Virus record (IMG/VR): IMGVR_UViG_3300025030_000046
Span: 32,001-96,000 of that record
DNA length: 64,000 nt
Direction: 5' to 3' (one strand)
From: a virus
Part shown: in pieces, positions 5,569-32,034 of the stretch
Numbering within the stretch: the stretch's first letter is position 1
Layout of the letters: each line of letters begins with the position of its first letter
Notes under the pieces: model-generated
What the model saw: only the letters and a program-made list of their open reading frames with translations
What the model was told of the DNA's origin: nothing
Databases searched by the model: none
Made by a program: the position numbers and the translations under genes

Positions 5569-5829
5569 TTTTTATTTCCTCTCTTTATATCTTCAATATT
5601 TTTCAATTCTTCTTGCGTTAATTTTTCTAATTTATACCCATGCAGTTTAGCCATTATTCCCGTGTACCTATCTTCTCCTAGTATTTCTCGAATTGTGAAT
5701 CCTTCTTTTTGCATTGTCATATTCTTCTCCTTTTAATTTTATATTTTACTTAATTGCTATGAAATGAAAATTTTATTGAAATATTGATTTCTACATCCTT
5801 ACTCCTGCAAGGGTTTCATTTTTACAAAT

Positions 5830-6772
5830 TTATTTATTAAGATGTTTTAAAATATGAACAATTACATCAACAGTCCACCCATTACCACATGCTTCATATC
5901 TTTCTTTTTTCTTAATTCCATCAATCAATGTATAATTATCAGGCAATGTTTGAAGCCTTTCAACTTCAATAGGCGTAAACTCACGAATATTATAATTTTC
6001 ATCAATAATACCATTTGGATTAATTCTTCTTAATGTAAAAGCTTTGCCATTACTTCTTACTGCATTTCCAAATTTTTTACTATTTCCTATTTGTGTTGCT
6101 GTATTTTTAAATATACATTTGTTGACTTTTGATTTATCATAATTAGTGTAATCTAATCTAGTCCTCGGCAAGTATGTATGCACAATATTATTTTCAATTA
6201 TGTCATCAATATAAATATGTTTGTCTTTTGGCTGCGTTATATCTGGTATGTTTGTCCAATATAATCTTTCTCTTGATTGAGCTGATACCAATTCACTATT
6301 AATCAATATTGGGCTAACACCTAAAGCATTTGTGATAATTCTCTTCCATTTTTCAGCCATTTTTACATTTTCTAATAAAAAATATTTTGGTTTAACATCT
6401 TTTAAAATTCTTATATATTCCCAAAATAAATATGAATAACCTTCAAATTCAAATCCGTTTTCTTTTAAATCCAAGTATTGGTCTAATGCCGTAATATCTA
6501 TTTTGTCTTTTGTAGACATTCCTCTCATTGACCCTGCAAATGAAAATGACTGACATGGACTACCCCCCAATTATAATATCTATATTTCTATAATCTTTCA
6601 CATTAATATCTCTTACATCACCTATTTCCACCGTATTTGGAAAGTTCTTCTTTGTAATATTAATAGAATAATCACAAATTTCACTTGCATAATATTTTTC
6701 TACTGGAATATCTGCCCTCTGTAAAGCTAATTGCCCACAGCTAATTCCATCAAACAAACTTAATACATTCAT
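5830..6772 (-). pseudogene. C5-cytosine DNA methyltransferase split by +1 frameshift in a G6 tract
   Basis: N-part LSLFDGISCG...IIIGG* and C-part GGSPCQ...LENV...RERLYW...GNGW join if one G is removed from 6563-6568. Confidence 0.88.
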
Positions 6773-7169
6773 TTTTACCTCACTGTTTTATATTTTACTT
6801 AATTGCTTTAAAACGAGAATTTTACTGTATTTTTTCTTCTCATTTTTATACTAATACGGCATCATAACTCCAAAATTCCCTTTTGCAATTAATTTATCTA
6901 CAATAATTGAATCATTATGCTTTAAGTCTTCTTTTCCAAGAACATTAAAACATTGTGCTAATATATCGCATTGGAAAGAAGTAAATTCTTCTTTGTTTTG
7001 TAATATAGCCCGCATATTTTTTTAAATTACCTTTTCTAATTTCATTACTCATTGTTTTTCTCCTTTCTATAAAAATCCGATTTTATTGCAAATTGCATTT
7101 CTGAACACCTACTTTCACTAGGTTTTCAGATTTGCCTATTTTTAAAATTTGCTTATTTTTAAAATTTGC

Positions 7170-7793
7170 TTATTTTATCTCATCTTTCCATGAATTGTCT
7201 ATTTCTCCAACAGATCTGTAACTAGCAACTGATTTACTTAAAGTTGAGTATAATGAATCTGTACCAACACTACTTGCAGTATAATTTGAAGCAAATTGTC
7301 CTTGGATTCCAAAGTTTTGTGCAGTATCAACTGCATCTATATTTGCTCCTAAAAATAAGAACTGCCAATTGTACTGATTAGTTTGAAGCTCAATCATTTC
7401 TTTAACTTTAGCTTGAGTAAATTCTCGGCTTGAATTTTCTTGACCATCAGTAGTAATTACGAATATAACTTTAGATGGTTTGTCATTTTCTTCAGTTTTA
7501 CTTAATCTTTCGCCTACAGTATTGATTGTCTTTCCTATTGCGTCCAATAGTGCAGTCATACCTCTAGCAAAATATTGTTTATTGGTTAACTTTTCTACTG
7601 ATTTAATGTCCACTCCATCATGTAAAACTTCATATTGGTCATCAAATAATACTGTTGTTAGAACCGCTTCTCCATCTTCTTGTTTTTGAGTTTCAACAAA
7701 TGAATTAAATCCACCTATTGTATCATTTGTAAGATTACTCATTGAACCACTTCTGTCTAGAATAAAGACTATTTCTGTTAAATTTTCTTTCAT
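7170..7793 (-). CDS. vWA (MIDAS) domain protein
   Basis: ILDRSGSM, GMTALLDAIG, ITTDGQENSS, FLGAN. Confidence 0.9.
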   Translation of the reverse strand: MKENLTEIVFILDRSGSMSNLTNDTIGGFNSFVETQKQEDGEAVLTTVLFDDQYEVLHDGVDIKSVEKLTNKQYFARGMTALLDAIGKTINTVGERLSKTEENDKPSKVIFVITTDGQENSSREFTQAKVKEMIELQTNQYNWQFLFLGANIDAVDTAQNFGIQGQFASNYTASSVGTDSLYSTLSKSVASYRSVGEIDNSWKDEIK

Positions 7794-7839
7794 TTTGTTC
7801 CTCCTAATTTTATATTTTTATTTAAAAGTCTTATTTTAA

Positions 7840-8253
7840 TTAATTTAAGATAGATTCAATCTCATTAAGTTCTAATTCAACCTTTTTGCCATCTGATAAC
7901 AATTTGATAAGCTTATCTTCCATCAATTTTAGCTTACTCTCTTCTGCTTTATGTGAAATAATTGCTATTCTGGCTTTAATGTCTGTGATCCAATCCTCTG
8001 CTTTATACCCGCTAATTATGTAGTCATCTAATACATCTAAATCTTTTGCGGAAATCACATAGGAGTTTAGCTTAACCATAAGTGAAATCAAATCTGGCTT
8101 CGTTAAAACTTGAATACTATATCTGACAGCATCAATCTCAAGAGAACAATTTGTAATTGGCGAAAACCTCGTTGATTTACTCAATTGAGCCTTCTTACTT
8201 TCTATTTGCTTCTTTAAAAGCATAATTCTTTGGTCATTTGTTTCATTATTCAT
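7840..8253 (-). CDS. Hypothetical phage protein
   Basis: 137-aa ORF coupled to upstream 8256-9356. Confidence 0.7.
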   Translation of the reverse strand: MNNETNDQRIMLLKKQIESKKAQLSKSTRFSPITNCSLEIDAVRYSIQVLTKPDLISLMVKLNSYVISAKDLDVLDDYIISGYKAEDWITDIKARIAIISHKAEESKLKLMEDKLIKLLSDGKKVELELNEIESILN

Positions 8254-8255
8254 AA

Positions 8256-9356
8256 TTAATTCTTATCCTTTCTATATAATTTATTATTTTTTAAATATTG
8301 GCACTTCAATGATGGTTTAAAATTATTATAAATTTCTTCTATAGTTCCGCTAAATAAAGGCTCTATGAAAATGTATTTTCTATTGCCTCTCCAATAATCA
8401 CCTTCGTAAGTATAATCATTTTGACTTTTAGGACGAACATAAAAACCATTTTTATTTTTGAGTTCTGTATTATTTAAGCTGCTATATTCTTTTGCTTCTA
8501 ATTTTTCATAATATCCATTAATATTTCCATAAAAAACACGATCCCACCAATATGAAGTTTTTTCTTTAAATTGCAATTCGAAATCTTCTAATGTTCTTAA
8601 TTCATATATGTCTTTATTTACATCATAAGGCGAATAATATGAATTGCATTCTAACTTATCAAATATTTCCGAATAATTACCTATACAATTATCGTCGATA
8701 CAAGAAATTATTTTTCCGCCAATGCTTTTGTATTTTATAAAATTGTCATCTTTGTTTTGCTTGTAAAACCAAAAATGCAATCCTTCATTTTCTCCATAGT
8801 AACCATACGCATCAAATCTCCCGATATAAATAATCTTTTCATTTTGATTTGTTAAGTATGTCGCCCCTATAATTAAATCTTTTGATTTGATTGAGCTTTT
8901 AGAATGAACTAATTTGTTAAATTCAGTAAGCTCTTTATAGTCTGGCGAGTCCGTTGGGATTAAAACTAAATCCTTTCCATCCCACCCATATACAAAATCG
9001 CCTTCTAGCCCCTTACCTTTTGTAGAGGTAGTGTTTTCTAGAATGTATAGAAGGTTGGGGATGGTAATTTCAAACTCAAATCCCCTTGGATCATAAACTC
9101 TACAATATGTTTGTCTGTGATTCCATCCAGTATCATAACCACCTGCCTTTTTATTAAGGACAAATCCAGATGTTGGGACATTTTCTGTAATAACATTCTC
9201 AATTTTCTTTTCTCTCCAGCTATTCCATGATGTTTCTTTTCTCAATACTCCTTTCTGGTCGTAATAAATTATGTAAGCTAACTTTTTTGTATATGTATCA
9301 CTTCTATTTTGAAAGCCTACATTAATTTTTTCTGGAATAAAAATATTACTTTTCAT
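8256..9356 (-). CDS. Hypothetical phage protein
   Basis: 366-aa ORF with RBS; N-terminal YDPRGFEFEI-type region. Confidence 0.75.
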   Translation of the reverse strand: MKSNIFIPEKINVGFQNRSDTYTKKLAYIIYYDQKGVLRKETSWNSWREKKIENVITENVPTSGFVLNKKAGGYDTGWNHRQTYCRVYDPRGFEFEITIPNLLYILENTTSTKGKGLEGDFVYGWDGKDLVLIPTDSPDYKELTEFNKLVHSKSSIKSKDLIIGATYLTNQNEKIIYIGRFDAYGYYGENEGLHFWFYKQNKDDNFIKYKSIGGKIISCIDDNCIGNYSEIFDKLECNSYYSPYDVNKDIYELRTLEDFELQFKEKTSYWWDRVFYGNINGYYEKLEAKEYSSLNNTELKNKNGFYVRPKSQNDYTYEGDYWRGNRKYIFIEPLFSGTIEEIYNNFKPSLKCQYLKNNKLYRKDKN

Positions 9357-9400
9357 ATATTCTCCTCTCTTTTATATTTTCAATCAAAAGCACATTTGAA

Positions 9401-11378
9401 TTAAATTTTAAATCTATATTCTTCAATGTTGCTTAACGCTTTAGTTAATAATTTTTCTAAATCATTGTCTCCACAAATGTATAAAAAATCTCCATTTATA
9501 TCATTCAAACACATCTCATAATTGTTGTCTTTAAACTTTCTTATTTTGATATCTTTAAGTTTAATTCCTATTTCTCCTCGCATAATTCCTCCTACTTTTG
9601 TTAAAAGAGTTATTTCGTATTAATTTTATTTTTTATATCAAATAAATAACTTGATATATCTTGCAAATTTAAACCTATGTAAACCAATATTCCCAATACA
9701 TTAATTTCAAAATGATTAAATGTATTTACTTTCATTAAATAACTTGTAAGTGCTACTAAAATTATCACATTTGTCAATTGTTTAATTCCATTCGACATAA
9801 GTATCTCCTTTTATTCATTTGGCATTTCATAAACTACAATATATTGATGGTCATGTGCTGGTTGAATATCTCGTAATGTTTCCTGTATATTGTCCATTAC
9901 TTGTAACGCCCTTTCCTCTGTGTCATAAATGCCTAATGTAACAATTATATTTTCTATTGAGCCAACTATTTATTTACTATTATTTTTAGCAAGTGATATT
10001 AATTTAAAATCTCCCAACCCACCTTTACTTTGACTTCTTATCCACATAACTTATCTCCTCCTTATAATAGTCGCTTACACCTTCTTCAAAATTTTCACAT
10101 TCTCCGAACTCATTAATTACTACCAAAGTATTTTCTAAACTATCAGTGCAACTATCTTCCCAATATTTCTTGCATTTTGTATTTCTACAGTGTAAAAACA
10201 TAATTAAAACCCTCCTTTTCAATCAAATATGCGTTTGAATCAAATTTCTCCATTCCAAGTAGCAAACTCTATATAATCGTTTTCCATTTGCTTTGTATCT
10301 TTTATATTTTGTTTTATGCTACTTTCATATATCCGTACTATTAATTTTGTCATATCTACCATATTATAGTTAATTTCTGTTTGCCAATCAGGATTTCGAA
10401 AATATTCTAATTTTATTTTTCCATTATTGTTACTAAAGTGACGCGTAATTAACTGAGTGGAAAATATTCTTCCTTTCTTATTAAGCGTTATGACACAACC
10501 TTCTAAATATCTTGCATCATCTTGACCATATGGTGATATTTCAACTTCATATTTATTTCCTGTTTCTGAGCTTACAATAGGATATTTTGAGTTAATACAT
10601 CCTCTATATGTATAATTTTTCATACATCAGAGCATTCATGATTGTAAGGCTTAAATATAATTTCTCTTTTCCCATCTATCCACCTTTTCCTAGCATTTTC
10701 GAGTTCCGTATTAGTTCTTTCTAGGCACTTTTTGCATTGACATCCATATTCCGTTAACATACAATCCTCCAATCTCATTAAAATGCAAGGTTTATTCAAT
10801 TTCTTTATCTACCCAAATTGGTATAACTCCATTTTTATATCTTTTTTCTGTTTTCATAAATTTCATATAATTCTTCATATGGTAGTTTTTCAAGAAGATT
10901 CAAAAGGTCGGCTTTATCTCCATAATATAAAAGACATTCCTCTTCGCTTATTGTTTTCATTATTTTTTCAACTATATCAAACATATAATCCGCCTTTCTA
11001 AATCAAACACAATTTTTATTTAGATTTTTTATTTAACTCAACAATACGATCAATTTCCTCATCCGACCAATTAGAAGGACTCATAGACTCACCCTCTGGC
11101 TCCCATACAAACTCATTTAATGGTTTATGCATACTGCAAGCACAACAATATGTAGCTCCGTAGAACCAAGGATTTCTCGCATAAGTGGCAGCAATTGTTT
11201 CTGGCATTGATGTAACTGTACCGCATGTTAAATGTTTATAACTTTTACGAAATGGTTTTATATAACCCTTGGTCAATTCTTCTTCTGAAAGCACTAGATA
11301 TGCTTTGTTTTGCTCTACTGGCTTATCATCTATGCCATATTTTAAATCTGGATTATTTATATCCGTAGTCAAACTCAT
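9401..11378 (-). other. Run of small hypothetical ORFs, including a nonsense-interrupted ORF at about 9811-10017
   Basis: ORF track plus manual translation; in-frame TAA at 9970-9972. Confidence 0.6.
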
Positions 11379-11398
11379 CTGTTTTTCTCCTTTATATG

Positions 11399-11878
11399 TT
11401 AATTATTTTCAAAATTATAAATAGTCACATCATAATTCTCAAATATTCGGTTAATCATATCGTAAACAACATTCCAGTCTCCGCCACCTAATCCACAACC
11501 AAGATTATAAGGAATAGCCACTGAGTAACCATTGAGAGAACTATTTGTATTATTAACTGCTTTATATACAATTTTTAAAGCCTTTGCTAATGCTGCATAA
11601 TCTGTCTGTTGAATATGTGTTCCATAATTACTTTGTCCACATAGGTTAGCTATAATTTTATTATCATGTGTAAATACACCAAATATAACTTCTCCTAATA
11701 ATGATTGATTCTCTGACAAATATTCTTTACAAATATGGCGATAATTTGCATAAACGTACGGATATTTCTCTTTAATCTGGTAAGCTAAACCTCCACCCAT
11801 AACACCCATACAATTAACTTGATGACAAATTATATCTTCTGTCGCTTCTAGGATATTGCCTTCAACTATTTTAATCAT
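11399..11878 (-). CDS. Macrodomain protein (TARG1/DarG/Poa1p-like ADP-ribose eraser/binder)
   Basis: IVEGNIL...ICHQVNCMGVMGGGLA...IPYNLGCGLGGGDW. Confidence 0.9.
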   Translation of the reverse strand: MIKIVEGNILEATEDIICHQVNCMGVMGGGLAYQIKEKYPYVYANYRHICKEYLSENQSLLGEVIFGVFTHDNKIIANLCGQSNYGTHIQQTDYAALAKALKIVYKAVNNTNSSLNGYSVAIPYNLGCGLGGGDWNVVYDMINRIFENYDVTIYNFENN

Positions 11879-11900
11879 TTTGTTGCCTCACAATTATATT

Positions 11901-12374
11901 TTACTTACTTAATTTTTCTATTTCGCTTAATAGGTGCTGTATCATTGCCCTATTATATGCAATCTTCAACCCTGTTTTTCTACTGTAATTATCTTCTTTA
12001 TTACACTTGGCAACACCTTTGCTGCCATCTTCCAAAATAACTATGGTGGCTATGTCTTTATGCATAACTTTTCCTCTTGATGCTGGTACATAAAATTTAC
12101 TCGTGTTAACTTCACCAGTTGACGTATTTCTTTCAATAAATTCTTGTGTGTGTCCTTTATACTCTATTATCTTATGTTCTTCTTGTCTTACTCGGTTATT
12201 TTCAGATATCTTCACACTATCAGTCACTATAATATTCATGTTTTCTAATTCCTTTCTGTATTTAACAGCATCATTAAAGTCTTTAAATCCTTTTCTAATG
12301 ATTTTATTTGCTATCTGCAATTTTGCCATCCATCTTTGCTTATATGTATCAAAATAAACACCAGTAACACTCAT
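11901..12374 (-). CDS. AP2-like DNA-binding domain fused to phage domain
   Basis: SVTGVYFD...RWMAKL...F..FNDAVKYRKELE. Confidence 0.6.
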   Translation of the reverse strand: MSVTGVYFDTYKQRWMAKLQIANKIIRKGFKDFNDAVKYRKELENMNIIVTDSVKISENNRVRQEEHKIIEYKGHTQEFIERNTSTGEVNTSKFYVPASRGKVMHKDIATIVILEDGSKGVAKCNKEDNYSRKTGLKIAYNRAMIQHLLSEIEKLSK

Positions 12375-12384
12375 ATTTTTATAT

Positions 12385-13590
12385 TTACCTCAATTCCACT
12401 AAATATTGTATAGTTAATTGCTCTTCTTTATATACTATAATTTCATCATTTCTCAACATTGATCCAGCATGAGCATGTAGACAATTAGCTCCTGCACAAT
12501 TTTTTTGTAGCGATTCGTAATTAAAATTATAATATTTACTATCAAATGAATATGCGTCATATGGTTTTCCATAAGCTACATTGTATAAACTCATAAAAGC
12601 TGAATTAGAACTTCCTCCAGCCCAATATGAGCCATGCAGCGAAGTATATCCTAAACTCTTTTGTGCCGATGGTGCAAAATAAATCCCATGACCAAACATC
12701 TTACCCGTAATTACTGCTGATGGTCTTAAAACTAAGCCAGTATTAATGATTGACCACCAATTTTCATTCCTAGAACCATGCCATAATAGTTTTATATTTT
12801 TGATACTTGCATCTTTAGTAAATTTATTAAACTTTTCTTGAGTTTTTAAATTAATAACTTTCCAAGCTTGATAAAATTTATCACTACATGAGCCAAGATT
12901 TTGCTTAATTAATTGCTTTTCTTGTTGTGTAATTTCCTCAAATCTTAATCCTACAGCATCTAAAATAGTTTGGTTTATAGTTGGAGAATCTTCTTCCTCA
13001 ATATTTTCTTCAACAATAGATTGTTGTACAACTTGACCCTTCATTATATCAAGCAAATCTTGCTCTCTTTGAATTGTTTCTCCAAAGTCTTTTTTATCAG
13101 TAGCTAAATAATCTTTAACTTTTCCCATTTTACGAGGTATAATTCTAAATAATTCAATGAGAACTTTGTTAAACAATTCAATATTGTCAGTAGTAATTAG
13201 ATTATTTAGTGTGACCTGTGCTTCATCTATCATTGTTTTTGTAACTTTGTTTGATGATATTGTGTAATTATCTGCGATAGCCTGTCTTGCCATAGATTGA
13301 AGCCTTGCTACTATAGCTGATATTGACGCATTTTCAATATCCTTATACTCTTTCTTCTTTTGTTTAACAATTGTTTCTGCTACTAGCCTTGTTTGATCGA
13401 GATAGCCTTTTCTTAACTTTTCATTAAGCTTCTTATTCCATTGCGACATAGAATATTGTGCGGTTTGGTATCCTGAATTTCCAACTCTCCCAAATTGAAC
13501 TTCAAACATATCTCCGTTGGGTATCATTCTATAGTATTTATTATTGTTGGCATCCGCTTCTACCATGACTAAATACAACGAACCTTCCAT
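12385..13590 (-). CDS. WGR-domain poly/mono(ADP-ribose) polymerase (PARP family)
   Basis: NNNKYY...FGRVG (WGR); LWHGSR...GKMFGHGIYFA...KSLGY...NDEIIVY (H-Y-E triad); start 13590 after AGGAG. Confidence 0.93.
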   Translation of the reverse strand: MEGSLYLVMVEADANNNKYYRMIPNGDMFEVQFGRVGNSGYQTAQYSMSQWNKKLNEKLRKGYLDQTRLVAETIVKQKKKEYKDIENASISAIVARLQSMARQAIADNYTISSNKVTKTMIDEAQVTLNNLITTDNIELFNKVLIELFRIIPRKMGKVKDYLATDKKDFGETIQREQDLLDIMKGQVVQQSIVEENIEEEDSPTINQTILDAVGLRFEEITQQEKQLIKQNLGSCSDKFYQAWKVINLKTQEKFNKFTKDASIKNIKLLWHGSRNENWWSIINTGLVLRPSAVITGKMFGHGIYFAPSAQKSLGYTSLHGSYWAGGSSNSAFMSLYNVAYGKPYDAYSFDSKYYNFNYESLQKNCAGANCLHAHAGSMLRNDEIIVYKEEQLTIQYLVELR

Positions 13591-13634
13591 ATCTTCTCCT
13601 TTCCACATAAAACATAAATTTTCTTGTAATTTTA

Positions 13635-14354
13635 TCAATTTTCCAACCATTTATTATCAAAATAATAGAACAATGCTACCAATCCTAATATAAATATTAT
13701 CCAGAATATCCAAAAAATAAAAGTACTTGAGTCTGACGTAACCAGCTTCATTGTTTTATCTATTGTCATATCTTTATAAAACATTGCTCCATCTTTACTG
13801 ATATTTCTGTCTAGCAAACAAGCAAATATAGTACCTTTTAATTCTGGCTTGCACCCATAATATTGATATCTTATGTGTGGTGATTCGTTAATTGTAGTAA
13901 TATGATCCTCGCCTTGTCTATTAAATTGAGAATAATTAAAGTTCTGTCCACAAAAAGTAACTTTTTTACCTACAAGTGATTCAGATTGAACCGTATCCCA
14001 CGTCCAGTACGTTTCTGTTCTATGATGCGTACTTTTACCGACCCTATAAGATACTTGTCTGGTGTGCATAGTGTATCGCTCTTTGTTTTTAGCAATGGAG
14101 AGGTATTTACCTGAAATTTCTGGATATGCTACTGCATCTACGGCTTTCAAATCTCCGTATATAAAGGCATTTCCAATACTTGTATCCATGCCATATTTAA
14201 ATAATTCTGCACTCTCTATTTTAGTTGCTTTATTATATTTATCATTCGCATCTATAAGATTATCTGATATCTTGCCAACAATTAGAAATCCAATTAATAA
14301 CATGATTGCAACAATAGATACGCTGGCTATAATTTCTCTTTTTGTAATCTTCAT
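13635..14354 (-). CDS. Membrane protein with two TM segments, LemA-associated
   Basis: Hydrophobic N- and C-terminal helices; directly follows lemA-like gene. Confidence 0.7.
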   Translation of the reverse strand: MKITKREIIASVSIVAIMLLIGFLIVGKISDNLIDANDKYNKATKIESAELFKYGMDTSIGNAFIYGDLKAVDAVAYPEISGKYLSIAKNKERYTMHTRQVSYRVGKSTHHRTETYWTWDTVQSESLVGKKVTFCGQNFNYSQFNRQGEDHITTINESPHIRYQYYGCKPELKGTIFACLLDRNISKDGAMFYKDMTIDKTMKLVTSDSSTFIFWIFWIIFILGLVALFYYFDNKWLEN

Positions 14355-14355
14355 A

Positions 14356-14904: not shown

Positions 14905-14951
14905 TATAAAATCCTCCATTATATTATTTAAATTTTAGGTAAAACAAATTT

Positions 14952-15142
14952 TTAACATAAATTTTCTATTTCAAATCTCCTTAATTCTTCTAGCAGTTCA
15001 CTGTCTTCAAAAAAGAATGGGTCTCTTTCTAATCCGTTTAACCAATTGCTAACAAATTGTCCGAATCTCCAGTCAGGCACTTTATTCCATACTCTCTCTC
15101 AATCTCATCCAAGAATGGCTTTATTCTGTTTGGATCTCTCAT
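14952..15142 (-). pseudogene. Small phage ORF (MRDPNRI...WNKVPDWRFGQ type) broken by an extra GA in a (GA)n repeat
   Basis: Manual translation; removing 2 nt at about 15092-15100 restores a continuous frame. Confidence 0.6.
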
Positions 15143-16154
15143 CTACTTTCTCCTTTACTTTTATATTTTAGATTATAAGCTGTATATAAACTCATAATAA
15201 GTTATTTTTAAAGGGAGGGGTAAAATAATACCCCTAAATAATTACATTTTACGAATGTCCTAATTGCTCCCAATAATCAGCGTCTATTTTTTCTTTCTGT
15301 TGAATACTAAAGCCGTTGATGTCATTGAAATTGAATACTATAACCATATAGCCATTAGCATCATTAAAATCTGTTTTATTTGCTGATAATAGAACGCATA
15401 GGGCTTCTACTGCATCCACAATTTGCTGAGTGTTAACTAACAAAGAACAATTTGTTTTAAACATTTTTTAACCTCCTTTTAATTAAACGTCATTTCAATA
15501 TGGCAGTGGTTATCACTGAGTGAAGACACCAAAACAGTTGAATTTCCAAACTTTATTCGTCTACGATCTCCGTTGACAACCTCCACTTTCTTTAATTCAT
15601 CAATCGTTCCCACAATTTTCATTAATTGTCTGGCTAATTTTCTTTCCACTACGTCTTTATCCGTCATACTTTTCACCTCCTTGAAGTAATAACTTCAATT
15701 ATTTTAAACGACCCACTTAACGTGTAATTTATATTAAAGGCTTGCGCCTATAATCTTTATTGCGACCAATTAATACCCTTTAATTTTTTCATTGTTGAAA
15801 TGTAATTTTCTATATATTTTTTATAATCATAAGGCTCTTTTGGTGGATTTATGTATACTTTAAACGGACTTTCACTCCATATTTCTTCAAATTTGCTTTT
15901 CATTTTAACCTCACTGTTTTATATTTTAGTTTATTGAATTATTTGTAAAATTTTATTTACTGCATCATCTACATTTAGTTTTCTCAGCTGTGCCTTTTTC
16001 TTCTGTATTTTTAAAGCTTTTACTTCTCCGTCAGCATATGAGGCATTAATACTATTGTTTTTCTTTAGCTTTTTAAGCCAATTTGGTTTATAAGTTAATC
16101 TTCTACTCATATATTTTCTCCTATATTGCTATTAAGCTGCTATTTATTAAATTG

Positions 16155-16264: not shown

Positions 16265-16490
16265 ATGAAAATAATATTTTTACTTTAATAATACCAATCT
16301 CGAAAGAAAAAATATCTCATGTCATGTTCAGATACATCTGGAAATTTTTTCACTACATACTTACAAAATATTTTATAAATTTTACTAGCTTTTATTCTAT
16401 TTCCAGTTTGTTTTTCGTCTATAATCCAATCCCTTAAATCATTTAAATTAACTTTTTTCATATTTTACTCCATAAAACTATTATTTTATA

Positions 16491-17323: not shown

Positions 17324-17470
17324 ATTTGTAACTGGTAGGTTGGCAACCCTACATCTCTTTAAGACCATTTCTAATATATATTTTAAAATACACTATTAAA
17401 AATTCCTAACATCATTCCTGAAAATTAGTTTCTGGCGTGGCAGCCGCCCATTCTGCCCTCAGTTACAAAT
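17324..17470 (-). ncRNA. tRNA-shaped RNA with AT-rich insert
   Basis: Terminal stem ATTTGTAACTG/CAGTTACAAAT; D-position hairpin GGCAG/CTGCC; T-position hairpin GTAGG/CCTAC. Confidence 0.6.
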
Positions 17471-18752: not shown

Positions 18753-18798
18753 ATTATATACTATGTGTTTTCTGGTGTCAACAACTATTTTATATTTT
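18753..18798 (-). promoter_or_regulatory. Sigma-A-type promoter with upstream AAAATATAAAA box
   Basis: Minus strand AAAATATAAAA-TAGTTG-TTGACA...TATAAT. Confidence 0.7.
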
Positions 18799-18811
18799 AG
18801 TTTATTGATTT

Positions 18812-19495
18812 TTATATTATTATTCTTTCAAAATCCAGTGTTTCAGTATCTATTGTCCAGCCTCTCAATTCGTTCCTTTCATGTCTACAAGCACAGTTAA
18901 ATACCAGTGTATTGCCTATTTCATCAACTCCTGCTGCTTCATGTATATGCCCACATAGCCATATTTTAGGTTGTTTTTCTTCTATTAGTTTTCTTATACT
19001 CTTACTACCAACTTCTCTACCATCATTACATTTATCTAAACATTGATATGGAGGATCATGAGCAATTACGATTGATTGATTATCTATCTGCAATTTGCTT
19101 AATTCATAAGCTATTTTATTTTCATTAGCCTCTCTATTAGTTGTAAATGGCGTAATATGTACTAACTCAAACGGTACTAAAAATTGTTTTGTATAATGGC
19201 AATTTGGTAAATATCTTAAATCATAACTATCTGCTTCCATCCAGTCGTCGTTTGATAGGATGAAGTGTGTACGATATTTATCTGACTGTAATATATTTAG
19301 TATATCATCTAAATCTTGTTTTTGTTTTTTACCAAACTCAATTAATGTTCCTCCCCAATTTTTACCACCAATATCTCCACAGATTATTAATTCATCTGTG
19401 TCTGAGTTTTCAAGAAATTTTTTAAGGTTACGTGCAATTATTTTATTGCCATGTATATCGCTCGTCGCAAAAATTTTCAATCTATTTACCTCCAT
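18812..19495 (-). CDS. Calcineurin-like metallophosphoesterase
   Basis: SDIHG, CGDI, SNDD (GND variant), AHDPP, CGHIHE. Confidence 0.88.
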   Translation of the reverse strand: MEVNRLKIFATSDIHGNKIIARNLKKFLENSDTDELIICGDIGGKNWGGTLIEFGKKQKQDLDDILNILQSDKYRTHFILSNDDWMEADSYDLRYLPNCHYTKQFLVPFELVHITPFTTNREANENKIAYELSKLQIDNQSIVIAHDPPYQCLDKCNDGREVGSKSIRKLIEEKQPKIWLCGHIHEAAGVDEIGNTLVFNCACRHERNELRGWTIDTETLDFERIII

Positions 19496-19525: not shown

Positions 19526-22500
19526 TTAATTATAAATTTCTAGCTTTATTTTAACTATTTCTCCGTCCGATTTTTTATAATTTTTATAATCCGCCCACTC
19601 CAAATGCATTCTAGCCATATTCTCTTCGTTTTCATTGTAGAAATAAGCATCTTTTATATTATTTGTAAAATATATTTGATCGCCCTTCCAATACAGATAT
19701 TCTCCTTCTGGATTTTTTATTACTAACAAATTAAGCATAAAATTATTCCTTCTCTTAATAAATTTAGTCTTTTATATATTCATTTACACATCCCTTACAA
19801 GTTGAACTGCTACATTCACCACAAAAAATTCCTTGAGGATTCCATCCTACTCCACCACCATGACATCCACCTACTTCATCAGTAATATCTAATTCCTCTT
19901 CAATTTTTATGTTAACTTCAATTTCATATCCCACTATATTTATATAATGTTCAGCTACAAATGAGTCAAATTCGTTTTCATTCAAGTTATAAAACTTTAT
20001 AGCTTTATTAGTTGCATCTTCTCCATTTACTCCAACTGATATGTAAGTATAAACCATCTGTTCTTTGAAATCCATAGCCTGTATTAAATAAACACCCATT
20101 CCATTTTTAATCATTCCTACGCCTCCTTTATGTGAAAATAATACCATTCTACAAGCCGTTTTAAGCCACTTTTATTTGATAGCCTGTATGATTTAACCTG
20201 CCGAAAATAATTATAATCAATGATTTATTTCACTTCTAATTTTTTCAATTAGATCTTTAATAATAATCGCTTTTTTATAAGTTTCATTAAAAATACATAA
20301 ACTATCTCCTTGATCTTTTTCCCATTGGTCAATTAAATCTTGTGCTTGCAATAATAAAGAACTTTTTGTATCCAGATAACTAAACATATCTTCATACCCA
20401 TCTTCACAATCATCATATATAACATCCATCAAATCGATAGATATGTGCGGGCTGCCCTCTACTGCCCATAAATACTCTGGAATATCTTCTTTTGCAAGTA
20501 TTTTTTCATAAATCCATTCTTCAAGATCGTCTTGTTCTCTTAAATGTTCATCGCTGCCTAAAAGATAATACCCGTTATAATCTTTGTAGTTTATTTTTTC
20601 AGCCTTTTGATAGAGTTCATTATCTCTCTGTATTTGTTTTAATCTAAACTCATTTCGTTCCTCATTTCGTGCTTCTTCACAATAACAACAATCAGTTTTA
20701 TTGCCCTGTCCACAATATTTACATGTGTACAAAACTCCGTTATAACAATGATTACAAGACTGGATGTATCCTTTCCCATCGTTTTCAACATAGATAAAAT
20801 GCAAACCCTTACATTCTGGGCAAAGCGTTGTATCTTCTTTTAAATCAATAATGACTCTTTCCTGCAATTGGGAATATAATTCTTTTGTTGTTAATCTATC
20901 CATAATTTATCTCCTTCATTGAAAATAATATTTTAATTAATTTCTACAAGAGTATATCTATATGATTCTATTATAATTATACCCTCAGAACTTTCACTTT
21001 CGATTTCTTTTACAATTTTATATTTTGCTCCTTCAATTAGAAGTATGTCTCCTACGTTTACAAAGTACGTTTCATCCATCTTGTGTTCTCCTTTCGTTAA
21101 TGTAATGTTTTAAAGTAATTTTCTTTTCACAGCTTCTTCTTTTAATAGTTTATATATTTTTTTATCATTCAACCATTCTTCGTCAGATATATTCATCATT
21201 TCAGCCAACCCTTGTTTATAGGCTAATCCCGCCATGTCACCTCTAGGCTCTGGACACGATATATAGTACATTTCTTCTTGCACTCTAATTTCATCTGCAT
21301 ATGTAATTGCCCTATCTTTTATATATTTGATTGTATTAAGCAAATGTTTATCTTCAAACTCTTCAGGATACAATTTTCTACCATCCAAAGTATTCCAATG
21401 ATCCTTATCAAGAAAACTTAATTCCATTTTATAGCTCCTTTCTATGAAAGAAATATTTCATTTCATTTTATTTTTCTTCCACACTCAGAACAATATTTTT
21501 TGTCATATGTTAATACTGAGTATTTTTGAACTACTTCGCAATGATTAACGTGACATGCGGCATCTTTTTCCTTGGGACAATTTTCTGTTTTGCATGGATA
21601 ATGACATAAACATGGATTTTCATTTACAATTATTTCTTCCTTTTCTTTTAATGGTTTTAAATCACAAGGATTAAAATTAAATGTCTTCTGAATATATCCA
21701 TCTTCATATTTTCTAGGCTTATCAAATTCTACAGTTATTCCTAAATATTCTCCTGAATTTTTAATAACCTTTCCAGCTTCACCATAAAAGAATGTAAAAT
21801 CTACACATGGAGTCATTACTTGCACAGGCATATTAACTTGAAAATCATTAAATTTATAATTTGTTTTTGTTTCTTCATATATCTCATGAATTGTTTTACT
21901 CATAAACACTCCTATAAAATTACTATTTCATCGTGTTTTTAGTTTCTGAACGTCTACTCTCCCAAGGGTTTCAAAATTAAAAGTTCTGATAATTCGTCGC
22001 AACTCTCAATTACCACCTTAATAGTCTCAATATTCAACAATCTACATATTAAGTAGTTTATATATCCATCTTGTAACACATTATCTTTATTAATAATAAT
22101 GTTCTTATCAAACTTACTATTACCTTTGTAATATTCTATCTTGCTTTGAATTTTATCTAATGAAGGGCGTGTATTCCTAAAACAATCTTTAATAATTATA
22201 TCTTCTATTTTAATAAATACCTTTTCTTTGTTAAATTCTTCACATTTAATTTTAGCTTCTTCTTTAGTTGAAAACAAATTATCTTCCGCTCTACTTAAAG
22301 TGACATAATTACAACGACCTTTATATCTTACTGAAATATCCCCACTACTATCAATACTTACTTTTGTTGATGTAATAATAAATGGATCATCACAGACAAC
22401 GCTAATATTTTTATTTGACTTAATTTTACCGACTCCCATACACTCAGGACACTTCATGTCTTTATTATTATATTTTATTTTTCCGTTACCTTCACATACG

Positions 22501-24850
22501 TGACAAGTTATTTCAACTCTTTCTTGTTTTGTTGTATAGATTGTGTCGCCTTTTTGAAATTTTACTGGTATCGCTAATATCTTCATATGAATTTTCTCCT
22601 TTTATTTTTATATATAATTTAAGATGAAAGCATCATCTTAAATTATATATGTCTTCATCATATAATTTTTGTATAACAAACTTATTTTTATCGGATGTAA
22701 TTTCGACAGGTATTATTCCAAAAAACCCATCGTAATTTCCATGATAAAATTCTACTCTAAAACACGCCCATCCAATTTCTTCAAATATATTATCAATATG
22801 TAGTAATATATCATCAATTTTTTGATTAATAGAAGTTTTATAAGAATCAGGCATTGTATTAGTATTCCTCAATATTTTTAATCTTTCTTTAAGTGTATTT
22901 GTGGCTATTTCAATATCTTTGAAATACTCTTCTCCTGCATCTTCCCCCATGAAACTCCAATCTTCATCTGTGTCAACATCAAAAATTACTTTATAGTATC
23001 TCATTTCTAACTCTCCATTTCTATAATTTCTACATTTTATCGTATATTTTAGTTTTTAAAAATTCATCTAACTGCTTGATACTTTTTATAGCTGGCGAAA
23101 TTCTGGCATTTGGATTACAAATATATAACATTGTTCTTCTTAGGTATAAAAGATAATTTAAATGAAATTTATTTGTTCTATTTGCATCTTTATGATGAAA
23201 TTCAAATATTCCTGCATATTCACCATCAAAAACAAATCCATTTTTACAAATAATATCAGCTATTTTATCTCCATCCCATTTTTTAAAAGGAGAATTTAAA
23301 TAATGTCCTATATTTTCTTTTCTCATATTTTTACTCCTTAAAACATTCATTTTATTGACATTTTACTAGCCTTTCATCCTCTATTTGTCTAAATAGCTGA
23401 GTCATTCTATCTAAGTGCGGATCTGGTTTTATTTTAATAGCTAACTTATTGACTCTATTAAGTTTATTAATACTGCTTTCTACTTTGTTTTTAATTTGAA
23501 GTGATTCATTTTTAATTCTAGGAGTATATGTTAGCAGCTTTTGTCTATCTTTTAATTCAACAACCTTATTCTTTATTATTTTTATTTCGGGTAATAAGTT
23601 AATTGATAGTGATTTTATGGATTGCAAAGTCTGGTATTCGTTTTTAATACTTCTCCTTTTAATCAAAGCATCTTGTAGTTTTTTAGCATACTTATATCCG
23701 CTACAAGCATCTAATCCTATATGTTCTTCTAATGCATGTCTAATATCTCCAATTTCTAAATCAATTGTACTTAATTTATCTCTCAATTTACCAAACTCTA
23801 TTTCTATTTCATTTACAAAATCATTAAGTTTTTGGTTTAATCTGTCTGCCATATTTAAACCTATACACATTTTAACCACTCCTTTTATATTTTAGTTTAT
23901 CATTAGTATTTAAATTCTACCTTCCATTTACTCGCAAATGCTTCCAAATACTCTGGTTCTCTAGCCTATAATTTCAATCAAACCTTAATTTTATTGATTA
24001 TTTGAATCTAAAACTAAATTAACTATATCTTGCTTACCTATATTATACGATAGCCTAATCATGTCATATTCCAGCTCAGTTAATTCTCTACTTAGCATAT
24101 TTTTAAAATGTTTAATTATTTTATCCATCTTCTTCTCCTTTTAAATAAAAATTCTATTTCATTTCAAATTTTTTCTTACATTCATCACAAATATTAATGC
24201 TATTTCCGTTAGAATCTTTAATCCAATTTAAGCTGTATTGTGTTTTGTTGCACATATCACACATTATTTTATTACCATTTGGTTTTAAAGCCCATCCTTC
24301 TTGAAAAGTATTTCTGCATATATCAGCACCACATACCGATGGTTTTCTATTTCTGCCTTGTTGCTCCATATTTTATACTCCTTAAAATCTATTAATTACT
24401 TCTTTTAAATCTTTCATATCTTCCTCGGTTAGTATAATTTCTTGAAATCTATGCGTTCCGTGTCTTAATATATACCATATGGTTTTAAGTCTATTCTTCA
24501 ATTTTGAAAAGAACCCCTCTTGTTCAGTAGAAAAAGCATAAATACTTATATCCATATAATATTCTAATGGTTCTTCTCCGTCAAAAAGCTTTCCAATTCC
24601 TATTGATTCTGTTCCGCAATCACATCTTATTACTATTCTTGTGTTATTTTTATCTGTTAATATCATTTTATTTCTCCTTATTTATATTTTTATTTATTAA
24701 TGCCAGTTGATACCAAATAGGACACAACAAACAAGCTAAAAAGAATATTGATATGGTAAAATATTGTGCGTTTATAGACATTTTATTAAATCCTTCTATG
24801 TCATATGATATGTTTAAAATAAACCCAATTATTATAAGTATATAAAACAT
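19526..24850 (-). other. Array of about 15 small hypothetical phage ORFs, several Cys-rich (20217-20903; 21954-22586 with DnaJ-type CxxCxGxG finger and ParB-like C-terminus)
   Basis: ORF track; each with own RBS. Confidence 0.65.
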
Positions 24851-24887
24851 TATTTACCCCTTTCAATAAAACTTAGATTGATCGTAT

Positions 24888-25193
24888 TTAAAAATCTATT
24901 TTCTTCCATCCAATGCTATCGCAAAAATAATACTTATCATCAAGTTTTACAATGTCACTCACTGACATGCTGCGACCTTCAAAATCTTTAGGATGCTCTA
25001 CATTGAAAATATAAAACAATTTTTCTAATAATTGATTTACAATTTTATCTTCGTTTAATTCTCCTTCATACACGATATTGTAATTTTCTAATTCAATTTC
25101 AATCTTACGGTTTAGATTTTTCATCATATCTAAGCCTAGAAATCCACACTGTGTTAACAAATCTCTTTTTATCTGGTAAATTTGATATTTCAT
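24888..25193 (-). CDS. YodL-like domain protein
   Basis: YQIYQ...LEKLFYIFN..HP.DFEGRSMSVSDIV...YFCDSIGW. Confidence 0.85.
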   Translation of the reverse strand: MKYQIYQIKRDLLTQCGFLGLDMMKNLNRKIEIELENYNIVYEGELNEDKIVNQLLEKLFYIFNVEHPKDFEGRSMSVSDIVKLDDKYYFCDSIGWKKIDF

Positions 25194-25263
25194 AACTCCT
25201 CCATTTCTGAACCCTTACTCTCGCAAGGCTTTCAAAATCATAAATTTCAATAAAACTCGTATT

Positions 25264-25722
25264 TTATGCTGTTTTTGTTAAAACTTTAGAATATCTGTCA
25301 TACATTACAATACTTCCTGCTACGCTTACATTTAAACAATGATCTCCAGCAATTTGTATTATATCGTGACATTTAGCTAACGCTTCTTTAGTGAGACCAT
25401 GATCCTCTGCTCCTAATAAATATACACATCTTTCAGGGTGTACATATTTTTCTAATTTTCTAGATTTATCGTCAAGTTCAATTCCAACAAGTCTACAATC
25501 AAAGGGTAAATGATTATAGAAATCTTCAAATGTTTCATAGTGATACAAAGGAATATGTTTAAATGTTTTCATGGTGTCGCTAGATTGTTTTTTATATCTT
25601 TTGCCAATGGTATATATAAAATCTGCCCCAAGTATATTTGCACTTCTCCACAACGTTCCTATATTACTTTCCGTTTTAATATTTTGTATACCTATTCCGA
25701 AAAATCCTCTTTGGTCAATCAT
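25264..25722 (-). CDS. SpoU/TrmH-family RNA 2'-O-methyltransferase
   Basis: NIGTLWRSA...LGAEDHGL...CLNVSVAGSIVMYD SPOUT motifs. Confidence 0.9.
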   Translation of the reverse strand: MIDQRGFFGIGIQNIKTESNIGTLWRSANILGADFIYTIGKRYKKQSSDTMKTFKHIPLYHYETFEDFYNHLPFDCRLVGIELDDKSRKLEKYVHPERCVYLLGAEDHGLTKEALAKCHDIIQIAGDHCLNVSVAGSIVMYDRYSKVLTKTA

Positions 25723-25832
25723 TTTTATCCCTCACTTTTATATTTTCTTTTCTTTGCTGATATTATATTACCAAACTATGGTATTGGTGTCAACATTTAT
25801 TTTATATTTTACTTAATTGAATTTTGAGATGA

Positions 25833-27788: not shown

Positions 27789-28571
27789 ATTGACCTCCAG
27801 TTTTATATTTTGTTTCAATAAATTTCAGATTCTATTATAATTCTTAATTAAAATAAATCTGTAAATTCCATTACCTTACAACCTTCAAATTCTGCTCCTT
27901 TTTGTGTATTATTTGCCTGTAATTGTTCTTTTTGTTCGATGAAAAAATAAGGATATTCCAAATACGTTTTATTATCTATGTCATCAACATTGTAACCCAA
28001 AGTATTTACATAATTAATTACTTGTTGACACTGATTTTCGTCCGTGACATGTATTGCTATTTCTCCATTTTTAAAATTTTCTTCTAAAAACCTATTATTC
28101 ATATAATTACGCTCCATTTTACATATCAAATTTAGTATTTATTTAAAACGCTGTACTTCTTTTTATATTGTATTTGCTTAATATGTCATTTAACTTTGTT
28201 ACATGCTCGCTATTTCCATCCATACCACCTAACTCATCGTCAATATATCCATAGCACATATCAATTAAATATTGCAGATCTTCGTTATCTACTTTTAACT
28301 TAGCTATTATTTCTTTATCGTTGGCTATTATATTACTCGTAGAAAAATCTTTAAATGTCATCACTGGCTTTCCTTCTTTATTTGATATAGTCATCTCGCA
28401 TCCATCTTTTATTTTAAATTTATCTATCATACTATCTCCTTTCTGTATTAATACAACGTTCATTTAATTGCATTTTTAGCATCTTGCTCACACATAAACA
28501 CTGTCTTATTAATTTCATCACTATCTATCTCAATATGACCTTCACAATAACTGTAAGAATCAAATTTAAAC

Positions 28572-28650
28572 ATAAATCCACTATTAGATATAAATCCACT
28601 ATTAGATATAAATCCACTATTAGATATAAATCCACTATTAGATATAAATC
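28572..28650. repeat. 18-bp perfect tandem repeat, about 4.4 copies (ATAAATCCACTATTAGAT)
   Basis: Direct reading; encodes (FISNSG)x4 in a minus-strand frame. Confidence 0.95.
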
Positions 28651-31600
28651 TTATTTCAATAACTACACCAGAATAAACACTAGCTAAAAATCGCCATCTG
28701 CCACAAGTTCATTGTCTTCTTCGGCACAATAAAACAATTTAGTACCAATTTGTATTGGAAGATCTATTAAATAATTTAACATTTTTTTTTCTTACCTTTC
28801 TATGAATTTTAGTTTTATTTTATTTTGTAAATTATTTCATAGTTATTTACCATGTCATCAATATATTTAACTGGAATATTAAAATATCTAGGTGGTAAAC
28901 CCAAACTCTTAATATATGGGTTATCGTCCATTATGTCTATAGCATACTCTGTTTTAATATTTATGTGATCTACACTATCTTCTTCATGTTTTTCATACAA
29001 TAAATCAATAACCTCATATAATTCCATAATTATATCCCCTTAGATAAAACTTAATTTCTATTGACCTTTTACGTTTTGTTTTTGCAAAAATTGTTCAATC
29101 GTTTCTAGATTATTATTAATCTTATATTGGCTCATTATACTAAGCAAACTATCATAACCCACTCTGTATTTATTACATGTTTCTATTAATTTTATTGATG
29201 TTTTTTTATCAAATCCTGCCTTTTCAAAAAAATTATACTCTTCCATTATATCCTCCAATCTAATTAAAACTCAAATTTTATCGTATAACCTCAAACCAGC
29301 AATATGTATAATTCCATTTTTACCTCTATATCCATCAACCTCACATGTGTAATCCTTGCCGTTAGTGACATCTAGACTATGAACATATTTGCTTTTTATA
29401 AAATGCTTGCAAAACCATGTTTTAAACCTTTTTAGCATAAAAAACCTCCCTTTTTAATAAAATTCAAGTTTTGTCTACTTTATTATTGATATATTTATCT
29501 AATATTTCATCTAAATCTGGGCATATCCAATTCCATTTATAGTCACAATCTTCACAAATTAAGTTATAATCAGCTAATTGAACAAGTATATTATCGCTAT
29601 TGCATTTAGGACAATGATGTATACTACCTCTTTTAATCCCAATATCTTCATAAAATGGCATTAATCTTCTTTTACCTCTTATGATGTCATCATTCATAAA
29701 TAAACTCCTTTCTAAATAAAGTATCTCTTTCATTTAAAAATAATCATGACCCATAATTTCTGTATCAACCTCTCTAAATTGAATATTAAATGTATTTTCA
29801 ATAAGCGGTTTGATTTTTCAATGAAACATGTGGGGCAAACATCTATTACATATCCTGTTCTACAATCTCCTTCTGGATAATTACATCCTAACTTTGCATT
29901 AATATTTACTTCAGACTGTTCATAACTTTCTCTATTTGACATATCTATATTACATATGTCGCAAACAACTTTATCTATTACTTCTCTTTCTTTAATTAAT
30001 TGTGGTTCAATCTTTATAAATTTCATAGTATACCTCCATACGAAAGTTTCATTTTATATTAACTTCTTTTCTTTCTGATAATATATCCATAAACCAAAGT
30101 AAATCTTCTTTATTCCTCAATCCTCCAACAAGCTCACAAAAATCACTTCTTTGTTTAACAGATAATATATTCCAAACAGATGCAAAATCTTTAAGTAATT
30201 CGAATATACCTATAAATTGTCTTGGAAAACTAAAACTACATTCTTCTTTTGGTAATGATAATTTAAAAATAGGTAATGTTTCTCCGTTTTCATATAAATA
30301 AGATAATCTTATAGATGCTACATTTAAAATATTATAAATATTAAACTTATTATTCATAATTTTCTCCCTTTCAATAAAGTAATACTTTTATATTAATTTA
30401 CAACCATTTTTCTTTAATCTTTTGCAATCTTTTATCTTCTTCTATGGGTAAGAGACACCTTGTATCGCCATCAGCATAGCCACTATTATAAAAAACTTCT
30501 AGCATTGATATTAATATTTCAAAAGCAGTTTTAAAATCTGGAGATTTTAATAACTGTTTTAAAATATCACAACTACACCAAGCACCACAGTAATCACGAA
30601 TTTCACCATAGGTTTGCTCTATATATTTAATATCTTTGTATAATTGCTTGTATTTACTGGATAAATTTTCCATATGATTCTCCTTAAAATTTCACATTTA
30701 TTGAATCTTCTGTTTGTCACTTCTACAAGCTAATTTCTTATATTTAATTTTTATACAATTATGAGGATTTCCCTTGCATATAGAAACATCTGCTACAAAA
30801 CTATTTTCACAACATGGAGAACTACTTGGAGATTCTTCATAATAAGAACAATTACCGCCTAATCTATTCTGTGGTTTGTCTGGATTATATCTTGGTTTTC
30901 CCTTACTCATCATAAACTCCTTATAAAATTTTTCTTTTATCTAAATTCTTTTCTCACCTTTAGAAAATCTTCCATTACTTTCTGGATTGTATTCATATTC
31001 TTTGTCGCAAACAGTACACTGTAACCAAGATGCGCCATTTACGCCTACGTCATTTAGCTTACTTTTCTTAGAGAGCTTACCGTTTGTTAAAACCTTATTA
31101 CTTTCTTCATAGGTTTTTTCGGCTACTAATTTTAATTGACCACCGCAATCGCATTTAAATTTACTCATCTTCTCACCTCTTTAAACCAATCTGTGAATTT
31201 ATCTTAATTTGTATCTAATATATTCTATTACATCTTCTTGCCTATGCCAATCATCTTCCCAATACTTCGTACCCAACTCTTGTCTTATCATTCCCATAAT
31301 GCATTGAGTTTCTATCCATACTTTATATGGATTTCTTTTCTCTGGGCTGTAAGTAATCGCCATATGACAGCAGTTATAATCAACTACAATTTGAATATAA
31401 TTCTTCTCTGTCTTCAACATATCATTAAAATAATAGACTGGTTTTATAGGCTGCTTATTTGAATTATATGTTGGTTTAGGTTTCTTCCTATTAAGATGCT
31501 GAATAATTTTATCAAACATAGGATATTCATTCATATTATCACTTCTTTCTCACATTCTATTTCGTAACCTTACTCGCAGTAGGGTTACAAATTCACATTT

Positions 31601-32034
31601 CCATATAAAATATCCTTTTCATTTAAACTATAATTTAATATACTTTAATACAACTAATATAAATGCTAAACTATACAAAATTTTTATGCTTATTTCTAAA
31701 TCCTTAATTACGTCTACATTTTCGCTATACTTCTTTAGCGTTTTTATAATTCCAATTAATATTGCGATTAAAAATAAAATTACTGTTACAATTAATATTG
31801 TCATTAAATCTCCTTGTTTAATTTTTCTATCTTTATTATACCATCGCATCCACTACAAAGTTTATAAAAAACTACCATTCCGTTTTCTGAATTGTATTTA
31901 ATTGTTTTTGTTGGCTCGGTTTCACAATCTGGGCAAACTAACTTTCCATCTTTTATAATCGCCATTTTAGTTATTCTCGTCTTTTTAATGTTTTTAGCCT
32001 TTTTATTTATCATCTTTATCTCCTTCATAACTTA

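Follow-up and report, generated by a model that had tools for sequence, protein, structure and literature searches.

A second palindrome held 14 bp from a phage junction core: a candidate docking site for a symmetric protein dimer

Tyrosine recombinases act at core sites built from two inverted arms around a short centre, laid out as 11-6-11 in dif and as 13-8-13 in loxP and FRT, and pdif sites flank modules on Acinetobacter plasmids. From phages, the SPBRE and Phi3TRE boxes are known, which are AT-rich, asymmetric and 15-26 bp long and are reported not to be interchangeable between SPbeta and Phi3T (PMC10516654; bioRxiv 10.1101/2025.11.27.690993). The PeSL (promoter plus stem-loop) of T4-type phages combines a strong sigma-70 promoter with a working terminator (PMC2839356). 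Here we analyze a stretch of 64,000 nucleotides, the window, which covers positions 32001-96000 of the 139,239-bp virus record IMGVR_UViG_3300025030_000046 (genome G000), a genome whose gene set is, judged by sequence, that of an SPbeta-like phage. Its subject is a palindrome of two 11-bp arms around a 7-bp centre, placed 14 bp from the AT-rich palindrome that marks the junctions between genes. Literature searches found no description of such a palindrome-plus-core composite, and a full-text search with words of the half-site returned unrelated subjects among the matches listed, where the word occurs by chance, probably inside primer or probe sequences. In kind, the arrangement is a recombinase-type inverted repeat that serves as the fixed-register partner of a phage junction palindrome.

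The junction core is an AT-rich palindrome of 18 bp with the strict form AT[AG]AAA-N6-TTT[CT]AT. The second palindrome, of 29 bp, was scored as the number of matches out of 22 arm positions to the ideal site TTGAAACCCTT-N7-AAGGGTTTCAA, in which A or T occupies the fourth base of either arm. Palindrome, 14-bp gap and core together form a composite of roughly 61 bp. The composites of the window, together with a relative lacking a core, are listed below; G005 is the genome of the closest relative of this phage.

5759..5776, core of composite A, a strict match; the core is identical in G005
5791..5819, palindrome A, score 15/22, with a degenerate core-side arm
7069..7086, core of composite B, directly 5' of a ribosome-binding site on the minus strand; same 6-bp centre in G005
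7101..7129, palindrome B (11-7-11), in an 88-bp island with 77% identity to G005
21914..21931, core of composite C, abutting a ribosome-binding site
21946..21974, palindrome C, overlapping the last codons and the stop of the open reading frame (ORF) 21954..22586 on the minus strand
25207..25235, palindrome D, 5 nt 5' of the ribosome-binding site of ORF 24888..25193 on the minus strand
25250..25267, core of composite D, one arm of which contains the stop codon of ORF 25264..25722 on the minus strand
31562..31590, palindrome E (11-7-11), absent beside the orthologous core in G005
31605..31622, core of composite E, about 440 bp downstream of a 12/12 match to a sigma-70-type promoter at 32063-32035 on the minus strand
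61059..61087, palindrome relative without a core, score 16/22 (20/22 for its G005 orthologue), no core within 8-21 bp

Coordinates and letters of the five 29-mers are exactly those of the first-pass annotation. They deviate from its consensus at 1, 3, 4, 5 and 6 positions, the next best sites in the window at 7 or more, and the five cores are all strict and lie exactly 14 bp away, to the left of 5791, 7101 and 21946 and to the right of 25207 and 31562. The same annotation had listed four related copies without a core, of which 61059 is a real relative, those at about 53459 and 54146 are borderline with 7 mismatches, and 37359 is only a partial match. Both borderline sites fall in a 1.7-kb stretch without called genes (52501-54234), about 700 bp of which align with G005 at 74% identity. 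Immediately next to palindrome B, at 7130-7180, are three direct repeats of some 17 bp that resemble TTTGCTTATTTTTAAAA.

Chance expectation for the cores was obtained from Markov simulations of order 1, 3 and 5. The whole genome holds 24 strict cores, compared with 1.5-2.2 in the simulations (maximum 5). Palindromes are likewise overrepresented at a score of at least 16/22 (9 vs 1.4 simulated) and at least 17 (4 vs 0.08), while at a score of at least 15 the enrichment is not clear (22 vs 10.3); copies 5791 and 7101, which score 15, are credible only because of their exact spacing and their better-matching orthologues. Outside the window, the palindromes at G000 positions 22431 and 116233 have strict cores exactly 14 bp away and that at 109509 has a one-mismatch core at the same distance, bringing the composites of this genome to eight, five within the window and three beyond it. 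A core of the form ATRAAA-N6-TTTYAT is thus accompanied by an 11-7-11 partner in about 8 of about 83 cases.

The distance between the two elements was determined from both sides. Starting from palindromes with a score of at least 16 in five whole genomes, a core with at most one mismatch is found at 14 bp in 19 of 31 cases and at 15 bp in 1 of 31, against a background of 20 in 20,000 random positions. Starting from the cores (gaps 6-25, 364 core sides scored per gap, palindrome score at least 15), there are 29 palindromes at a gap of 14, 8 at 15, a single one at 24 and none at the other gaps; these reduce to 26 unique composites, of which 21 have the 14-bp and 5 the 15-bp spacing. When IMG/VR was scanned with a pattern over 31 gap values, 54 loci were obtained, with peaks at the equivalents of 14 bp (10) and 15 bp (9), and smaller clusters at other gaps that come from repeated contigs. 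With a distance histogram sharply peaked at 14 bp and a minor peak at 15, the proposal of a fixed-register second site beside the junction palindrome is borne out.

The sequence TTGWAACCCTT-N7-AAGGGTTWCAA occurs in 22 composites of the five genomes. Its half-sites, TTGWAACCCTT, face one another across the 7-bp centre, each arm carries a CCC/GGG run, and the arm centres are 18 bp apart. The centre is G+C-rich and falls into types: GNGAGAG on the sense strand in six sites of G000 and four of G005, CAGCCAC in two core-linked sites each of G000 (22431 and 109509) and G005, and GGGGCTG in all three sites of G002. The two CAGCCAC sites at 22431 and 109509 have the same centre, and so do the three G002 sites among themselves; the six GNGAGAG-type centres of G000 all differ from one another. 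Copies from one genome have similar 14-bp spacers, identical in all three from G002, and the spacers of different genomes differ.

Per genome, the direction of the centre is constant relative to transcription, in 10 of 10 sites of the GNGAGAG type, 4 of 4 of the CAGCCAC type with a core and 3 of 3 in G002. The core, on the other hand, is found 3' of the palindrome in four of the eight G000 composites and 5' of it in the other four. When all 64 orientation assignments of seven copies were tested exhaustively, the transcription-based assignment ranked 2nd or 3rd and the core-based one 59th-63rd. A core on either side of the palindrome suits two symmetric sites. An arm site belonging to an oriented att site, as first suggested for the element, is not supported by these data, since with the core on either side of a transcription-aligned centre no accessory site fixed relative to the polarity of a crossover is seen.

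We tentatively propose, as a reading that is plausible while still falling short of probable, that the 11-7-11 element is a DNA docking site for a symmetric dimer, most likely a Xer-like recombinase, that touches a core factor across the 14 bp. A symmetric protein dimer would occupy the two TTGWAACCCTT half-sites facing each other across the G+C-rich centre, and the 29-mer would be held 14 bp (rarely 15) from the ATRAAA-N6-TTTYAT core that marks about 83 gene junctions. From the fixed gap we infer that the proteins binding the two palindromes touch, in which case about eight junctions would carry a larger nucleoprotein module of about 61 bp upstream of the next ribosome-binding site. A catalytically intact Xer-like tyrosine recombinase would be the most likely binder because the geometry is theirs. 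The outcome could be of either kind: the module may mark junctions at which cassettes exchange, or it may be a stable block that controls the downstream genes.

Like the core sites of tyrosine recombinases, the element has inverted arms of about 11 bp and a centre in the 6-8-bp range whose asymmetry gives polarity, enzymes bearing the catalytic residues are encoded in the same genome, and the sites lie at the edges of exchangeable gene blocks. It differs from them in that no strand exchange is seen, either among 15 of 63 contig joints or in the homology between G000 and G005, in that centres differ between most copies and several copies point in one direction, and in its rigid coupling to a second palindrome on either side.

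All composites lie in short spaces that separate co-directional genes, with their ends 0-30 nt ahead of the next ribosome-binding site. A Shine-Dalgarno word follows within 12 nt in 13 of the 24 strict cores, and 4 of the 24 hold the stop of an upstream ORF of at least 40 codons. With one mismatch allowed, 83 cores are found in G000 and 68 in G005. The two genomes have 35 of the 6-bp core centres in common (2.8 expected), all in the same orientation and order, and most genes between shared cores have no homologue in the other phage. In a blastn comparison of these genomes, composites A, B, C, D and F stand out as islands of 62-120 bp with 77-83% identity (71 bp and 80% for C), and the genes on both sides of B, C, D and F lack G005 homologues. 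A conserved core can do without the palindrome; the orthologue of core E in G005 is identical and stands without it. Of the 219 proteins of G000, 13 recur in at least three of the four genomes set against it, with identities mostly in the range of 25-50%.

G000 and G005 agree at every base of the core, spacer, centre and far arm of composite A; their differences are clustered in the near arm, at 6 of 11 bases (window 5791-5801 vs G005 19033-19043), within a 60-bp composite that is otherwise identical. In the metagenome of the source study, contigs break or branch at composite C (21912-21941). In a contig variant from run X3, the methylase cassette is replaced, with the boundary 4 nt beyond palindrome A.

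Whether the palindrome acts in DNA or in the message was assessed by folding and covariation. Predicted RNA folds are good for three of the five window copies (z -3.5 to -5.1, minus strand) and no better than shuffles for the other two. The good folds, the constant location in transcribed gaps between genes, immediately 5' of a ribosome-binding site, the constant direction of the centre relative to transcription and the differences in copy B between G000 and G005, which by eye preserve pairing, are all in line with an RNA element, that is, a message hairpin serving as processing site, stabilizer, terminator or translational operator. However, the 26 composites contain 95 one-arm deviations and 10 compensatory ones, where shuffling gives a mean of 9.9 (P = 0.56), in a test that has lower power because its sites were picked by consensus match, a point that counts against our reading. 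Broken pairs on the sense strand comprise 14 G-U and 18 A-C, without an excess of G-U. Many relatives found through one arm keep that arm perfect and have a non-pairing inner half in the second. By eye, a T run follows the palindrome on the sense strand in two of the eight G000 copies, and six of the eight have no terminator tail; Rfam at gathering scores gave no family match at the palindromes. The lack of compensatory changes and of a G-U excess fits a protein site of two half-sites on DNA rather than an RNA hairpin or terminator. We consider an RNA element decidedly unlikely. Action as a terminator or RNA hairpin had been named at the outset as the outcome that would overturn the interpretation; folding, covariation and G-U counts do not support it.

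The conserved islands at the junctions of swapped genes also bring to mind a PeSL-like cassette of promoter and stem-loop, kept for transcription and serving as a passive homology patch for module shuffling. Like a PeSL, the composite is a short, conserved non-coding module that stays in place among accessory genes as its neighbours are replaced, and the PeSLs of T4-type phages do act in this manner (PMC2839356). The 35 colinear core centres and the run X3 variant, with its boundary close to palindrome A, would suit such a role. Yet neither a promoter nor a terminator is recognizable in the composite, and no constraint on pairing is seen in its stem. The TTGAAA of the arm lacks a sigma-70-type -10 element at the proper distance. 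Promoter scans found no match of 10/12 or better in the composites, save a doubtful one overlapping the start codon beside composite G; apart from it, strong promoter matches lie outside the composites. A terminator tail is missing from most copies, and the function would not need a 14-bp register on either side. We therefore hold a PeSL-like cassette to be improbable.

Candidates for the binding protein are first of all the recombinases of the phage itself, which encodes four proteins of tyrosine-recombinase fold. A 327-amino-acid Xer-like protein (NF040815, 229.9 bits, cut-off 220) and a 343-amino-acid protein, Rec343, both encoded outside the window, retain R, HxxR, H/W and Y in alignments read against the residues generally known to be catalytic in this family. 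The following genes of the window are relevant here:

33343..34299, minus strand, MrpR-like protein of recombinase fold (Pfam MrpR_N_CB 5.7e-20 and MrpR_C_cat 4.4e-15, both above cut-off)
34299-35600, YopQ-like protein, 26.7% identity to SPbeta YopQ
32679-33320, divergent LexA-like repressor
56257..57336, minus strand, YopP-like protein of the tyrosine-recombinase family, with HSLKK in place of HxxR in the alignment

In three of five genomes (G000, G001 and G002), a composite lies about 1 kb upstream of a Rec343-type catalytic-domain match, the counterparts of Rec343 in the other genomes being assigned by position. A weak homologue of the small gene between composite and recombinase is present in G001 and G005. 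In further records, Rec343 was found at an E value of 1e-5 or better in one of four, three of these records being 31-72% complete. We regard this neighbourhood as suggestive of recombinase binding, not more. PHROG searches with ten genes flanking composites returned function-unassigned families only.

A more far-reaching possibility is that the composite is the complete site of a phage-encoded cassette-exchange system among co-infecting SPbeta-like phages. A Xer-like dimer would then bind the 11-7-11 site, the private 6-bp centre of the 18-bp palindrome would serve as an address, and accessory gene blocks would be swapped slot by slot at the few 'full' junctions. We think this unlikely.

A number of observations weigh against docking of a recombinase dimer. 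Purely symmetric docking leaves unexplained why, within a genome, the centre always points the same way relative to transcription; this polarity may be inherited with the cassettes or be the sign of a transcription-linked role. In known tyrosine-recombinase systems differing centres block exchange, and the six GNGAGAG-type centres of G000 differ. No palindrome-to-palindrome joint was seen among 15 of 63 contig joints, in contigs that drop rare forms, and the homology between G000 and G005 spans whole composites instead of ending in the 7-bp centre; the idea that the elements mark complete or recently used att sites is thus not supported. The arrangement upstream of a recombinase is missing in G003 and G005, and the recombinase at that position in G001 is not detectably similar to Rec343 (the best tblastn value, 0.22, falls elsewhere in G001). 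Moreover, the relatives of Rec343 are 34-37% identical although the half-site is nearly unchanged, a combination that a conserved host protein would explain at least as well. What ties any protein to the site is geometry together with loose co-occurrence.

A site for such a conserved host protein, for instance a global regulator, a nucleoid protein or the host Xer enzymes, would account for a half-site that is almost invariant over five phages with so few proteins in common, and no DNA-binding protein is obviously common to all five. Against this, bacterial genomes scanned for the perfect palindrome contained at least 120 loci, spread over all phyla and G+C contents, which look like generic hairpins, and a control palindrome with reversed arms gave 5 viral loci vs 21. 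With hairpin-like matches of this kind and this control, no host regulon is recognizable, and the sequence is not known to match an operator consensus. A host protein is doubtful in our view. The notion of a universal bacterial motif was dropped after the same reversed-arm comparison, which as a single control gives a rough calibration.

In short blastn searches with two composites against named phages, the matches were weak and partial, the best covering 35 bp at 88.6% (E 0.01). This match is an intergenic repeat of Staphylococcus Kayviruses (phage GH15, 39466-39500) carrying TTGTAACCCTTGGTATTAAAGG, which differs little from the left arm and centre of the perfect G001 palindrome. By sequence, the repeat could be a chance resemblance or a distant relative of the 11-7-11 site.

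The MrpR-like protein had been put forward as a candidate for footprinting, and the palindrome might be the operator of this master repressor, a counterpart of SPBRE that silences the downstream genes. Its gene lies beside the YopQ-like one as in SPbeta, where the gene order yopQ-yopR-(yopS) agrees with that found here, and the protein is 27.8% identical to SPbeta YopR over 97% of its length and lacks the catalytic residues in the alignment. In SPbeta, ten SPBRE sites bound by MrpR are located in promoter regions (PMC10516654). Seven aligned SPBRE regions show a short inverted repeat around 7 bp, which in three of the seven abuts the ribosome-binding site. MrpR_N_CB is present in six of nine composite-bearing records searched. 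The two kinds of element are alike in being repeated between genes, in about ten copies and often just upstream of a ribosome-binding site, and in that a gene for a recombinase-fold repressor is also present in G000.

Nevertheless, two near-complete relatives with composites do without the protein: neither G002 (98% complete, three composites) nor G006 (100% complete, one weak composite) gave a match to MrpR_N_CB, tblastn of G002 found no MrpR, YopQ or YopP (best E for the MrpR-like query 0.11), and G006 is likewise without all three. The half-site stays the same among phages in which the identity of the MrpR-like protein to that of G000 is 30%, 37% and 86%; the repressors of SPbeta and Phi3T, by contrast, show no cross-reaction. 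No close relatives of the MrpR-like protein turned up when viral contigs were searched. The published boxes, moreover, are phage-specific and asymmetric, and an AT-rich box of 24-26 bp is read by the SroF/MrpR monomer (bioRxiv 10.1101/2025.11.27.690993); the 11-7-11 site is symmetric, with CCC/GGG runs, and is common to distant phages and to phages without MrpR.

A better candidate box is available as well. The oriented sequence AAAATATAAAA occurs 66 times in G000 (6.6 expected) and 81 times in G005 (5.6 expected), is weakly enriched in G001-G003 (12-14 vs 4-8 expected), and lies just before a ribosome-binding site or beside the -35 of strong promoter matches, for example at the following places of the window:

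6768-6824, 15899-15955, 18773-18813 and 25785-25825, copies of AAAATATAAAA

From its sequence and placement, AAAATATAAAA is the best candidate for the box of the MrpR-like repressor. The absence of MrpR from G002 and G006, the constancy of the half-site despite divergence of the protein, the type of the published box and the presence of this better candidate make the MrpR-like protein unlikely as the binder of the 29-mer, and an explanation of the palindrome as its operator very improbable.

In SPbeta itself, an annotated 16-bp palindrome, TTGTAATGCATTACAA, precedes yopM (positions 17856-17871 of L001), 13 bp before an SPBRE and the ribosome-binding site of that gene, in a layout that recalls palindrome, gap and core. 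The outer bases of TTGTAATGCATTACAA resemble the arm ends of the 11-7-11 site.

Beside the LexA-like repressor gene, a palindrome TTTTGATATTATCAAAA and repeats of ATATTATCAA lie between divergent promoters at window positions 32609-32665 and are, by sequence and position, probably the operators of this repressor. A role of the core as LexA-like operator was discarded, as that operator appears to be the different palindrome near 32640-32665. Reading of the sequences against known consensus words also led us to reject an extracytoplasmic-function (ECF) sigma promoter, a sigma-54 promoter, CcpA, CodY, TnrA and ComK sites, parS, integron attC and mimicry of a tRNA anticodon arm. For integron attC, the arms do not fit the core-site words RYYYAAC ... 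GTTRRRY, and the best integron-integrase model reached 105 bits with a cut-off of 265.

The genome from which the window was taken has 29% G+C, with 24-32% along the window. The last approximately 125 bases of the record repeat, by eye, the first approximately 125, and CheckV estimates its completeness at 75%. Over the first 57.4 kb or so of the window, almost all ORFs are on the minus strand. A primase, a helicase, an NAD ligase and methylases are also encoded, together with a PARP-like protein:

12385-13650, minus strand, protein with WGR and PARP catalytic domains (PARP 7.6e-23, WGR 5.7e-07)

ARAGORN found no tRNA in the window, and near-identity searches with 25 kb of it against phage and plasmid collections gave no match. 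An Rfam skipping-rope RNA matches the minus strand at 17327-17467 (57.1 bits vs a gathering score of 36.7) in an ORF-free stretch. At 28566-28655, four to five tandem copies of the 18-bp unit TTAGATATAAATCCACTA lie inside a 384-bp ORF-free gap; this iteron-like array is possibly an origin.

In large temperate phages of the SPbeta type, small accessory genes are lined up in long arrays and turn over very fast. The composite is a non-coding module that outlasts the genes around it and keeps its 14-bp register in phages with few common proteins. Its description also tells apart three easily confused classes of motif, namely a repressor box, the junction palindrome and the 11-7-11 site. If a recombinase binds the palindrome, site-directed cassette exchange in phages would become directly testable; if a host or regulatory protein does, the composite would be a new control point inside early operons.

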